64,000 nucleotides of DNA. Source: Octopus vulgaris. Taxonomy: Eukaryota. Below, piece by piece: positions 2,400 through 56,033 of this stretch. The stretch spans positions 106,578,001 through 106,642,000 of the forward strand of contig OX597821.1 in assembly GCA_951406725.2 (NCBI GenBank). The letters are read 5' to 3'. Numbering within the stretch: the stretch's first letter is position 1; each line of letters starts with the position of its first letter. Both the position numbers and the translations under genes were made by a program. Under the pieces are notes generated by a model. That model was not told the DNA's origin. It worked only from the letters and a program-made list of their open reading frames with translations, and searched no databases.

Positions 2400-3446
2400 A
2401 TGGAATTATTACATTCAAATGTGGAAGTATGTGACTCGTACAATATAATTACCGATCATTCTAAATCAAATGCGATTAAAGATACTATTCTGAATTCATT
2501 TCTGCTAAAAATTAAAAAGATTTCCATTATGGGATACTTTCCTTATGCGATAAATGTAGAAACGTGGAAAGTTTCTGGAATAAAGACACGAATACTTTAT
2601 ATATTAATCCCATTTGTGTATTTAATTTCTATGATTGATATTATACGTTTGCCTTGGTTTATCATAAAAAACTATTCGAAGGAAAAGCTTGGGCCACTCT
2701 TTGGGAAAAGTTTCCTCCTTTTCCTGAAGGCATATCCATGTATAATTTCAATAAACATGTTTTGGAACAGATTTAATATCAACAGGTTAATCCACGAGTT
2801 CGGTACCTACATTCCAATAAACCAAAATGCTAAATATATGGCTCGATATAACACCATGGGTACATATTTTATCGTTTATAACGCATGCTGTATTGTCGTG
2901 GTGAATTTTGCTCTCTACATCATTATACCTATGACACTGGCAGATCCAGATTTCTTCTTTGATGTCATGGCTTTCCCGATATTACGTGGGAGCGAATTAT
3001 TTTTAATTAGTTTGGTAATTAATTGGATGATAAATTCATTGGTGACAATTTTCCTTGCACCAAACTTTATCTTACTCGTTGGATTACTGTTAATCATGAT
3101 AGATGAGTTTAAAGTTTTATCACAGACACTCCAAGTTTATTTTCCCGAAAACCAAGACGATCATACAAATATATCTCCCACCCAAACTCCTTGCATTGAT
3201 ATATTAGATAAGATAATTAAGCAGCATCGTAAACTTTGTCGCTTACTTAAGATTAACAACAAAGCGTCTTATGTTACGGTCGCCATTACATTTTTTCTGT
3301 CCATTATTACTTGTTGTGTACTAGCTCATGAAATCTCCAATGGATTAATAAATCAGAAAGGATATATAATCCAACTGATTTTTGGAATGGGACTAGCATC
3401 ATCTAGTTTCCTAATGATATCCAAAGGTCTTCAGCTCAATTTCAAT
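2400..3446 (+). CDS. Gustatory-receptor-like (Grl/7TM ion channel) variable exon V1, TM1-TM6, subfamily A
   Basis: 349 codons from ATG 2400 (MELLHSN...) to phase-0 GTAAGT at 3447; six hydrophobic segments; DEFKVLS and HRKLCRLLKINN motifs resemble the Gr IL2/TM5 'H..L.....N'; candidate acceptor TTTGCCGCAG ending 2279. Confidence 0.8.
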
Positions 3447-3789
3447 GTAAGTATTTGGTTTTCAAATTTTCCGCTTCAGTTATATTAAATGCCTATTCGT
3501 TTAGAAACGCGGTTTAAATTCAGGTATTACTCGTCATTTGTGTTTAGTGATGTTAGTGTGAGATGTTACTGTACCTATTTAAACGCCCAACGCTTAACAA
3601 CGTATTGTTGATTGAGTAGAGCAAAAACTTGAAGTTACGTTTGAAGCTTGTTTCGAAACATAACCTCATATTATTTTGTGAATCGTAATAACACGTTCCG
3701 TGATTATTACATACTCAATATTTAGATATATACTCTAAATTCAGGTTCTTCATAGGTTCTATTTCTTCAAGAGTTTTCCATAACAAACC

Positions 3790-4080
3790 CGTGGAAAAAT
3801 ACACACGGGAAGATCCGAGCAATGGTATTGTGATATTGGTAAGGGAGATGGATGCGGGATTTGTCAGAACGCAGACCTTCGCTATTATTCGTAGAAGGGG
3901 TCAAGGGGACATATTCTGACAGTCAAGTACAAAGAAGGCCCTTTGATGAAGGCAAAGAACCTCCTGAAACTGCTGATGCACCCTGCTGAGCTGTTGATGA
4001 TATGCTTTTCCCAGATCAGAAGGATTTATGCCAAGACCTGTTAGACAAAACGCAAAGTACAAGGAGACTTGCCTACAATT
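3790..4080. repeat. Unclassified dispersed repeat, second copy at ~59360-59630
   Basis: Shared words TATTCTGACA, CCCTTTGATGAAGGC, TGCAYCCTGCTGAGC, GATATGCTT in the same order in both copies. Confidence 0.55.
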
Positions 4081-4419
4081 CTTGAAATGTCACACGTATC
4101 GTAAAGAAACAGAAACCGTGATAGTTTTTGTAAGTGCCTCCGGTGAAGATCATGTGATGATGCCCTATATATTTGAATTGGACTTAGCTTCACTTACACT
4201 GCTATGTGAAGCTGCTGGGTGGTGTGTTGATGCCTGGTCGGTGAGGGTTGCAGCTGGAATGCTATGTGTGACCACAGGTTTCTGTTCCTTACGACACCTC
4301 CACAAAGAGTTAGTGGTACGCTATTCGAGTCGCGTGTCTGAATCACATCCTTGTGTAACATGACGGATCTGTAACATGACAGATCATTCGTTTCACATTC
4401 ACCCTACATGAAGCAACGT

Positions 4420-4760
4420 AGACACACATACACACACACTTACATGCACATGCGCACACGCACGCATACTGGCTCACACATGTACACACACGCACATACA
4501 CACAAACACATACACGTACACGCACAATAATACATGCACACGCACACACTGATATGCACACCCACCCATGCACACCCACGCACACACACGCACACACATG
4601 CACACACTGACATGGACACCCACACACGCACGCACACTCTAACAGAAACGCACACGTACACACATACACGCACGAACTCGCACGCGTACTTGCACGCACA
4701 AACGTACACGCCCACGCATACAAACACATACACACACTCTCACACACTCACACACACTTA
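4420..4760. repeat. Degenerate (CA)n/(CACG)n microsatellite
   Basis: Directly visible low-complexity tract. Confidence 0.9.
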
Positions 4761-5199
4761 TATCGAGCCATATTTAGAGTGTTTAGGCCATGTTTAGAGT
4801 GTTGAAATTACGATAGCAAGATCGCGGTTTAAGTCCGTCGAAATAATGGTGACTTGCGTTCCTCACGTTAGCAGAATAAAATCATCTCACGTTGCTCTGC
4901 GATCACTTGGACACCTTACGTGTCGTACACCGTGCAACTCTTTTGACCACAATAACTAAATTATTATGCAGGTCGTTCCGCAAAAACTGAATACTCATAC
5001 GTCGTCTTCGACGGCAGACTCCCTTGTTTATATAAGTATAAATATGTGTGAACGTGTGTATTTAAGTGTGTGTGTGTGTGTGTGTGTGTGTGTGTGTGTG
5101 TGTGTGTGCATATGTGCTTATGCTTGTGTGTCGATGTATAAAGCAAAAAATATGAAGCACAAAATCACACAAAATTGATGAATAATTTCAGAAATTCGT

Positions 5200-53352: not shown

Positions 53353-54405
53353 ATGGAAGCATCTAAATTGGGCCCCGAAATATCGGATTCACATTCAGTT
53401 CATATAAGAACGAGCGACAACTCTCCAAAAACCCTAAATGAGAGCCTTTTGATGGAATACCTGGAGAAACTCAGACGTCTTGCAATTGTATGTTCTATTC
53501 CTTCTAAAATGAGTTTAGAAATTTGGAAAAAATCCGTGGTGAAAACACGAATTCTGTATTTATGTCTCCCTTTAATCTATTTAATTTCAGTGTTTGATAT
53601 TTTACGTTTTATATGGTTTGTTGTAGCGAGTTATACATCAAAGAATACTGAATATATATTAGGAAAATGCTTTATGCTCTTGATGAAGATATTCCCAGGT
53701 ATATTGTCACTGCTCGTTACCTGGAAACGAACTCACACCAACGCATTAATCGATGATATTAACACTTATATTCCAATATGCCCAAGTAATGTATTAATGA
53801 AGAGGTTCCACAAATTTAGAGCATGTAAGATTTTGATCAACATATGTGCTAATTTTCTCATGTGCGCTATATTCCAAACTATTTTACCATTAATTTTAAC
53901 TGATCCAGAATATTTTTTGGAGGACTTAGCTTTTCCATTATCACGGCAGAATAGTTTTTTTGCGTTTATGCTAATAATGAATTTCTTGACAAATATATGG
54001 AATTCTATTGTTTTTCTGCCATTTGGGATATTATGCGATGCATTAACTTCAATATTCACAGAAGAATTTAAGTATTTATCGGAGTCCCTCAGAAAATCCA
54101 TAGAGGAAGATCAAGCTTCTAAAAAACAAATATTTCGGAGAAGAATAAATCTCAATAAAAAACTAAACGAAATAATTAACCACCACACTAGACTGAGCCT
54201 ATTGACGAAAGACATGAACTCGGTATTTCAGTTTTCTAATGGCCAGATTGTATTAATCTTCCTCATTATCTGCTGTATTATATCTTATGAAATAGCGAAT
54301 GGATTAGTCTACCAGAAAGGCTACGTACTACAGGTTATTACGGGAATAATGACTGCACTGTATTGTTTATATCTGATATACAGAGGACTGGTGTTTTACT
54401 CGCAG
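53353..54405 (+). CDS. Grl-like variable exon V8, TM1-TM6, subfamily B
   Basis: 351 codons, CAG|GTAAGT at 54406 (phase 0). Confidence 0.82.
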
Positions 54406-54525
54406 GTAAGTATGACGTTTGTGTATTTGTTATGAGAATATCGTTAAAAACAGAGGAGGTATTTTTCTGGTTATGTAAACTGAATGTGATTCCGATATTT
54501 ATGTTAATAATGAATTTCACGACAG

Positions 54526-54818
54526 ATATCTATCTATCTATCTATCTATCTATCTATCTATCTATCTATCTATCTATCTATCTATCTATCTATCTATCTA
54601 TCTATCTATGTACCTATCTATCTATCTATCTATCTATCTGTCTGTCTGTCTATCTATCTATCTATCTATCTATCTATCTATCTGTCTATCTATCTATCTA
54701 TCTATCTATCTATCTATCTATCTATCTATCTATCTATCTATCTCTCTCTCTCTCTCTCTCTCTCTCTCTCTTATATATATATATATATATATATATATAT
54801 ATATATATATATATATAT
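54526..54818. repeat. (TATC)n(TC)n(TA)n microsatellite
   Basis: Directly visible. Confidence 0.95.
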
Positions 54819-55477
54819 GTTATATTTCGGAATGGTCATTTTGCCAGTTTAGCCAATAAAAACACACGCACTATATATTTGGTGTTATTTTGCCTCAGTG
54901 TTATTTATTTTTTACATTAATCTTAATCATACTTCGGCCAGAGTTCTTTCGTCACACTCCTGTGACCGCACCAGTGGTCCTTTGTTTTCTTCTTTCTTAT
55001 CTGTGTCTCTCCTTACGAACCGTCAGCCATTTTGTATTTCTATTGTATGTCTTCATTTGCGCATGCTTATATCTCTATGTGCGTTTATGTTTATTTAGTG
55101 TGTGTATGTGGGGGATGCCTGTAATATTTGTATCCCCCCACATACACACACTAAATAAACATAAACGCTCATAGAGATATAAGCATGCGCAAATGAAGAC
55201 ATACAATAGAAATACAAAATGACTGACGGTTAGTAAGGAGAGACACAAATAAGAAAGAAGAAAACAAAGGACCACTGATGCGGTCACAGGAGTGTGACAA
55301 AAGAACTCTGGCCGAAATAAGATTAAGATTAATGTCCCAGCATGGCCACAGCTCATTAGCTGAAACTGGAAAAATCAAAATCAAATCAATCAAACACTGA
55401 AGCAAAATAACACCAAATATATAGTGTGTGTGTTTTTATTGGCTAAACTGGCAAAATGACCATTCCGAAATATAACA
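54819..55477. repeat. Inverted repeat, ~300-bp arms, ~13-bp loop
   Basis: 54819-55116 is the reverse complement of 55130-55477 (right arm has a ~55-bp insert). Confidence 0.9.
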
Positions 55478-55727
55478 ATATCTGTTTCAACACACGACTT
55501 CACATAAAAAATCTTGCACAACAAATATTTAAACGTACTATATATATATATATATACATATATACATACATACATGGATACATACTTACATGCATACATA
55601 TATACATACATACATGGATACATACATACTTACATTCATACATACATATATACATACATAATACATACATACATACATACACACATACATACACACATAC
55701 ATACATACATACGTACATACATACATC

Positions 55728-56033
55728 CTCTTAATGTTACTTGATCTGGAATATTTTGTGGAGGTTTCAGCTTTTCCGTTATCACGACAGAATAAGATTA
55801 TTGCGTCTACGTTAACAATAAATTTCTCGAAAGATTTATGGTATTCTCATATTTTGTGTCACCTCGGAGATAAGGTAATGCATTAAGATTAATATATATG
55901 GAAGAATTTAAGTATTTATCACAGACGCTTGGAAATTCCATACAGGAAACTTATAATTCGAACAAACAAATCATTCAGAGATTTATAAACCTCAAAGAAA
56001 GATTAACTGAAAAAATTAAATTACATACAAGAC
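55728..56033 (+). pseudogene. Grl-like variable exon fragment pseudo-V9 (EL2-IL2 region)
   Basis: [20 protein letters not shown]...frameshift...EEFKYLSQTLGNSIQE..INLKERLTEKIKLHTR; cut by a SINE at ~56040. Confidence 0.8.

Follow-up and report, generated by a model that had tools for sequence, protein, structure and literature searches.

A stretch of 64,000 nucleotides of the Octopus vulgaris genome (contig OX597821.1, 106578001-106642000, hereafter the window) carries part of what is very probably one gene of the gustatory-receptor-like (GRL) family of seven-transmembrane ion channels (7TMICs), in which many alternative first coding exons are joined to a single set of shared exons encoding the pore. 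Coordinates in the 106 and 107 Mb range refer to this contig, and short ones to positions in the window. In the account that we propose, each long exon would be transcribed from its own promoter, and its donor would reach the first constant exon because the intervening long exons, being themselves first exons, would offer no acceptor. Judged by their fold, the products would be tetrameric ligand-gated cation channels of N-in topology, with different pockets but a common pore and a partly common anchor. Tandem duplication limited to the long exon would supply new receptors, of which many would later decay.

As listed in Table 1, the window contains ten paralogous segments of the long exon, all on the plus strand, six of them intact. 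Each intact copy runs for 349 or 351 codons from its ATG and is closed by an in-frame, phase-0 GTAAGT. Since this hexamer occurs only 25 times on the plus strand of the 64 kb, its presence at one aligned codon in six copies is not due to chance. The count of ten copies, six of them intact, agrees with the original prediction, made from the letters of the window, and all six of its donor positions proved exact. It had also described six helices per copy; a simple hydropathy scan gave 5-7 peaks per copy, and the structural model presented below has six long helices before or across the exon junction. The dimensions that it gave for the duplication unit of the 33223/36307 pair, 2 kb with about 400 bp of 3' flank, had to be corrected: the unit measures ~2.3 kb (32653-34982 versus 35731-38084, 92.8% identical), of which ~700 bp remain behind the donor.

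The complete array comprises 20 long-exon copies over 153 kb (106572401-106725572), 12 intact and 8 broken or partial. The first copy, at 106572401, lies 5.6 kb before the window and is frameshifted in this genome, while six further intact exons follow past the window (106652517-106725563). A genome search with the 70-residue tail of O. sinensis LOC118764605 isoform X1 located three constant exons, which code for the remainder of S6, for S7a and for the pore helix (S7b): exon 1 at 106729547-106729615 (69 nt, phase 0), exon 2 at 106731161-106731250 (90 nt, phase 0) and exon 3 at 106734684-106734737 (17 codons and the stop). They form a single set after the last copy, 88-93 kb past the window, with canonical splice ends (AG..GT). 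All 12 intact donors are phase 0 and stand 4 to 148 kb from constant exon 1. The arrangement of long exons ending in frame, 69- and 90-nt exons and a last exon in frame is the splice feature given for the superfamily in PMC6175461.

A scan for splice-bounded exons covered 654 kb (106348001-107002000), the outer stretches being mapped by tblastn and 106258001-106328000 and 107082001-107230000 lying outside the directly read sequence. For exon 1, 12 of 3328 candidates scored 33 or more, the next one reaching 21; for exon 2, 14 of 1421 scored at least 47 (next, 15); and for exon 3, 13 of 6479 scored at least 66 (next, 27). The top scores are inflated because the references came from this cluster; copies of exons 1 and 2 that were not references still stood above background, whereas divergent copies of exon 3 did not. 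In the 169 kb from the last exon of the previous gene to constant exon 1 the scan, weak for divergent copies of exon 3, found no end exons. Between the array copies, those of the window included, it found no private end exon, and three genome-wide protein searches agree. The claims that no TM7 exon separates the copies and that they share constant C-terminal exons, one set of which was found downstream of the whole array, thus both held, and the private 3' exons that would have spoken against the original prediction did not turn up inside the array. We regard the layout itself, many long exons and one constant set, as almost certain. A weak exon-3 look-alike present at least seven times, on both strands, was rejected as part of a dispersed repeat: the exon-1 look-alike paired with it is in the wrong order, and it fell outside the top 30 splice-bounded candidates.

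Isoform models of two other Octopus species place the junction at the predicted donor. The first 351 residues of O. sinensis LOC118764605 X1 (421 aa) are the ortholog of the window exon at 44651 (96.6% identical), and the remaining residues start exactly at the donor of that exon. Isoform X2, assigned in RefSeq to the same gene, ends in 70 residues identical to those of X1 and begins with the ortholog of the first array copy (match at 106572551, 95.5-97.5%), the long exons of X1 and X2 being 32% identical to each other. At the level of the RefSeq isoform models of O. sinensis, different long exons are spliced onto the same 3' exons. The O. bimaculoides model LOC106880487 X1 likewise begins with the first copy's ortholog (77%) and ends in this tail, which is identical at 69/70 residues to that of this genome, so that between species the shared tail is far more conserved than the long exon. 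Overall, exons of the array are 95-98% identical to O. sinensis models, and the proteins 95-99% identical to O. sinensis and O. vulgaris records. A form shorter by 14 residues, produced through an inner acceptor of exon 1, is modelled in both species (P0063, P0062), suggesting that the models are probably based on transcripts. Searches at the level of reads spoke neither for nor against splicing. With constant exon 2, no RNA run was listed as a match; 17 runs guessed to be RNA contained a small share of it, which by itself is no evidence. Four of them mapped to the last long exon with constant exons 1 and 2 displayed no junction into exon 1, in tables swamped by repeats; low contig depth was present in the bins of exon 1 in three of the four and of exon 2 in all four, and likewise in some intron bins.

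Neighbouring loci are modelled likewise. Isoforms X1 and X3 of LOC118764607 use the long exons at 106378782 and 106390015 and have 71 residues in common, and between these two exons and their end exons lie six intact copies in this genome. Isoforms X1 and X3 of LOC118764608 share 72 residues. In models from two species, the end-exon set at 106549507 is shared by the long exons at 106534811 and 106545289. The latter exon (106545289-106546300, plus strand) has an apparent GC donor instead of GT, and its O. bimaculoides ortholog is modelled as spliced there.

On the evidence of structure prediction and family profiles, the encoded protein belongs to the Gr/Or/GRL (7TMIC) superfamily, as the original prediction had proposed. 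An AlphaFold2 model of O. sinensis X1 (97% identical in the long exon and 69/70 in the tail), built from a 58-sequence alignment, reached a predicted local distance difference test score (pLDDT) of 88.9 and a predicted template modelling score of 0.87; folding of the single sequence gave a pLDDT of 37.5. The six long helices are followed by S7a (helix 369-384), a hairpin and S7b (helix 399-418), and the exons meet (351/352) towards the end of helix 323-361. Foldseek returned 20 matches at E<=0.001, and all 19 of those listed are insect Or, Orco or Gr structures. On re-alignment, 20 Or/Gr chains gave Z 21-28, among them AgamOR28 with Z 27.9 (root-mean-square deviation 3.6 A over 358 residues) and Gr9, Gr43a and Gr64a with Z 22-24, versus 6.9 for the next unrelated fold, and the best six matches of an Atlas structure search had TM scores of 0.71-0.74.

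Both spliced isoforms exceed the Pfam 7tm_7 cut-off of 26.6 (33.8 and 35.1 bits). In Pfam searches with eight proteins, three, all from neighbouring loci, had no Gr/Or family; with the six window exons alone, one passed its cut-off, one stayed below and four had no Gr/Or family. A genome search with Pfam 7tm_7 gave 0 matches, its controls being silent too. The TM7 motif, diagnostic of the superfamily and not definitive (PMC7746228), reads TYxxxxxQT here, matching (T/S)Yhhhhh(Q/K/E)(F/L/M) at three of the four fixed positions. Among 54 relatives with the motif the gate residue is Phe in 27 and Thr in 21, and Thr is found in all the named cephalopod records compared that have the motif, cuttlefish included, most other relatives having Phe. 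'Gustatory receptor' is the automatic name of two octopus records. Solved Gr structures have their pocket inside S1-S6 and a pore lined by S7b, and the anchor is made of S7a with the cytosolic parts of S4-S6 (PMC12635824). By this anatomy the long exon would encode the pocket and part of the anchor, while the pore and what remains of the anchor would come from the shared exons.

The 12 intact array exons form one clade in a quick tree (SH-aLRT 100). They are 28-92% identical (median 35%), have 345-362 open codons and carry the donor at the same codon. The ratio of non-synonymous to synonymous substitution rates (dN/dS) was 0.55-0.85 in the 11 pairs over 50% identity, below 1 in all of them, so that selection on the intact exons is purifying but loose; with the many broken copies, this is the birth-and-death pattern of tuning chemoreceptors. 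Mean identity is 24-25% in the membrane segments S3, S4 and S5 versus 44-47% in the cytosolic anchor parts of S4 and S5. The pooled ratio of non-synonymous to synonymous differences (pN/pS) peaks at 1.7 in the outer half of S3, a descriptive value since the pairs are not independent.

Several observations weigh against the account of one gene with many first exons and a shared pore. The evidence for splicing consists of database gene models, which exist in spliced form for 2 of the 20 array copies only, one of the two being frameshifted in this genome. The TM7 gate is Thr and not Phe, Leu or Met. Given the high dN/dS and 8 broken copies out of 20, drift may be under way in some of the intact ones. 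By a rough assignment, conservation is lowest in the inner membrane halves of S3-S5, so that variation is not simply on the outer pocket. No shared promoter motif stood out from controls: a search in 28 upstream regions reached an information content of 8.75, against 8.43-8.70 in four random controls, and in a further search 2 of 40 random sets were equally good. Finally, GRLs are not always chemosensory: the cnidarian NvecGrl1 acts in development (PMC5850775).

Part of this could be taken to mean that few long exons are used, most intact ones being silent duplicates or unspliced six-helix stubs, all the more as translation past any donor would meet an in-frame stop within 3-33 codons. Such a stub would be without the pore helix. 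The 12 intact copies are old, as their median identity indicates, yet all keep their open length and aligned donor, and low expression in few neurons, usual for Grs (PMC5850775), would explain the sparse models; with dN/dS below 1 throughout, we hold this explanation to be highly improbable. Slightly less so, and still improbable, is a Dscam-like gene, in which one upstream promoter with a shared non-coding leader would serve mutually exclusive splicing of the long exons. The failure of promoter motifs to exceed controls would fit it, as would the pyrimidine run and AG seen by eye about 50 nt before the ATG of 15881, 33223 and 36307. That acceptor-like site is absent, however, from 44651, the window copy with a spliced model; moreover, every copy has its own ATG at the aligned position, recent copies were duplicated along with 300-600 bp of upstream DNA, and G/T-box and TATA-like words stand upstream of several copies (by eye, not significant). 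Promoter choice for each long exon is proposed by analogy with other systems.

Private end exons that escaped detection, or an assembly artefact, could also be invoked, because the exon-3 scan is weak: probable copies near 106355834 and 106367747 scored 21, at the level of the background. Divergent copies of exons 1 and 2 elsewhere scored 33-55, however, against backgrounds of at most 21 and 15, and none occurs in the 169 kb; the genome-wide protein searches and the tail shared by the isoforms of other species have already largely refuted this reading, to which we give next to no weight. An unlikely, though more serious, alternative grants the layout and the splicing and takes the role to be non-chemosensory or internal, such as temperature or nutrient sensing, development or cell identity, for which Gr28b(D), thermosensory (PMC11526382), and NvecGrl1 offer precedents. 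Big expansions with fast turnover and many pseudogenes are instead the pattern of tuning chemoreceptors, as in insect Grs (PMC6175461), and both the most variable segments (S3, S4 and S5 in the membrane) and the pN/pS maximum in outer S3 argue in the same direction. For the array gene, with its alternative first exons and shared pore, a chemosensory role is most likely.

The same variable/constant design is found in the vertebrate clustered protocadherins and UGT1A, where variable first exons precede constant 3' exons. The clustered protocadherins have a conserved promoter element at each variable exon and a stochastic choice in each cell; the proteins are unrelated to those described here, and the octopus upstream regions, as said, yielded no such element above controls. 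Insect Gr loci are much closer. Blattella germanica Gr60a-m has 13 isoforms (PMC6175461), Tribolium castaneum Gr214 has 30 (PMC6720082), and Drosophila Gr39a and Gr28b are alternatively spliced (PMC3011837). These loci share with the octopus array the protein superfamily, the tandem long first exons, some of them pseudogenic, and the three short phase-0 C-terminal exons onto which they are spliced. Since insect loci have this design with up to 30 isoforms, it is of a known kind and only the lineage is new. The octopus locus differs in being molluscan, in spanning ~160 kb with introns of up to 148 kb for intact copies, in belonging to a ~1-Mb cluster with about 17 end-exon sets, and in its Thr gate.

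GRLs are known from Mollusca in general (PMC7746228). Outside arthropods only a few are reported per species, with 3 in Trichoplax, 4 in Nematostella and 4 in spionids together (Robertson 2015 and Saina 2015, as cited in PMC7746228 and PMC6175461; Eyun 2017, PMC5850775; PMC11730519). The fold, the TY...Q motif and the three 3' phase-0 introns are common to those GRLs and to the octopus ones, whereas the octopus cluster alone holds about 60 intact variants.

Chemotactile receptors (CRs) derived from nicotinic acetylcholine receptors consist of a large beta-sheet domain outside the cell and, after it, four membrane helices. The model of the array protein is helical throughout except for one short hairpin, and the family is distinct from the CRs, as anticipated. 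Both groups are octopus-expanded, ionotropic and candidate chemosensors; the CRs are pentameric, while the array family has the 7TM Gr/Or fold. O. bimaculoides has up to 26 CRs (PMC11526382), and the cephalopod chemoreceptors studied comprise CRs, G-protein-coupled receptors and ionotropic glutamate-type receptors (PMC11682238, PMC11526382).

The literature searched, with most subscription journals and supplements outside its scope, contained no octopus GRL expansion and no such splicing in a mollusc, in keeping with the supposition that no mollusc case had been described; the main text of PMC5850775 has 0 occurrences of Octopus. These genes could already be named in gene lists supplementing papers on cephalopod genomes or on 7TMICs. 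The family could be missed because the genome search with Pfam 7tm_7 was empty and gene models keep two or three isoforms per array, and the array is largely hidden from routine annotation. More tentatively, and with the odds against it as a whole, octopuses might have a further large chemoreceptor family, with at least about 60 GRL variants exceeding the CR set, in which promoter choice would give a sensory neuron a single long exon, or a few, from each array, the common anchor and pore would allow the isoforms of an array to assemble into mixed tetramers, and the Thr gate would confer a permeation of its own. If so, most variants collapse into few gene models and are for that reason missed by annotation. 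GRL variants could be receptors of the olfactory organ or the lips, and the ~1-Mb cluster, with its intact variants, provides a cloneable candidate list for octopus smell and taste. With a pore common to all isoforms of an array, the locus offers a natural series for the study of ligand tuning through the pocket alone. Duplication of first exons as a route of GRL expansion is not confined to insects.

Table 1. Long-exon copies and adjoining sequence in the window (window positions; segment start, approximate beginning of the paralogous segment)
Feature	Segment start	Position	Strand	Remarks
Intact variable first coding exon, 349 codons, S1 to most of S6	~2313	2400..3446	+	donor GTAAGT at 3447; constant exon 1 148 kb away
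Broken copy, internal stop, 3' part lost	10500	10500..11339	+	
Intact variable exon, 351 codons	15860	15881..16933	+	donor 16934; alone over Pfam 7tm_6 cut-off, 31 bits vs 25.8
Broken copy, disrupted frame, no donor at homologous place	26035	26035..27063	+	
Intact variable exon, 351 codons	33211	33223..34275	+	donor 34276
3' fragment of copy including donor, remnant of partial tandem duplication	35206	35206..35290	+	
Intact variable exon, 351 codons	36286	36307..37359	+	donor 37360; 92% identical to 33223 copy
Intact variable exon, 351 codons	44600	44651..45703	+	donor 45704; 106 kb before the constant exons
Intact variable exon, 351 codons	53302	53353..54405	+	donor 54406
Internal fragment of copy	55695	55695..56053	+	
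Intron sequence continuing past window end		56054..64000	+	

The cluster of ~1 Mb around the array holds about 60 intact long exons and, as mentioned, about 17 end-exon sets. The 854 kb read, to which the window belongs, contain 52 long open reading frames (ORFs) matching the profile; 49 of them have an ATG and a donor, and 37 of the 52 end in GTAAGT. Ten more matches, stop-free and nearly full-length, fall in a 148-kb stretch covered by genome search, or at its margin. On the minus strand, a second and probably larger array (106977436-107239794) has about 18 intact long exons over ~265 kb, 8 read directly and 10 known by genome search, and faces one end-exon set at 106974032. No end exon was matched inside it, and two of its exons serve the O. 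sinensis isoforms LOC118764608 X1 and X3. Between 106760000 and 106975000, also on the minus strand, nine end-exon sets lie 20-40 kb apart, most of them near-identical; every set is preceded by one, two or three long exons, and many of these are broken. The same cluster thus combines duplication of whole genes with duplication of exons alone.

Shortly after the constant set comes an intact long exon (106755497-106756496, plus strand) with no same-strand end exons nearby. It groups with five copies at 107.25-107.28 Mb, whose end exons are ~525 kb off, beyond the minus-strand block, which hints at a rearrangement. Two recent copies have inverted 5' parts of long exons immediately upstream (106416245-106416638 and 106424971-106425366, minus strand), from which antisense or hairpin transcripts could arise. 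Far away on the same contig (24502036-24549806, minus strand), five long ORFs weakly resemble a cuttlefish GRL (P0010; E 8e-5 to 7e-3) and, judged by this resemblance, are a possible second GRL array; the 20 kb behind them contained no end exons. Within the window, retrotransposon reverse transcriptase and endonuclease-like ORFs, recognized by eye from translations, are found between the long exons at 6362-7804, 29138-31534, 39540-40460 and 60498-63194 (all minus strand) and at 42763-43679, and a tandem repeat at 49794-50579 consists of 2.2 copies of a 352-bp unit that are 98% identical.

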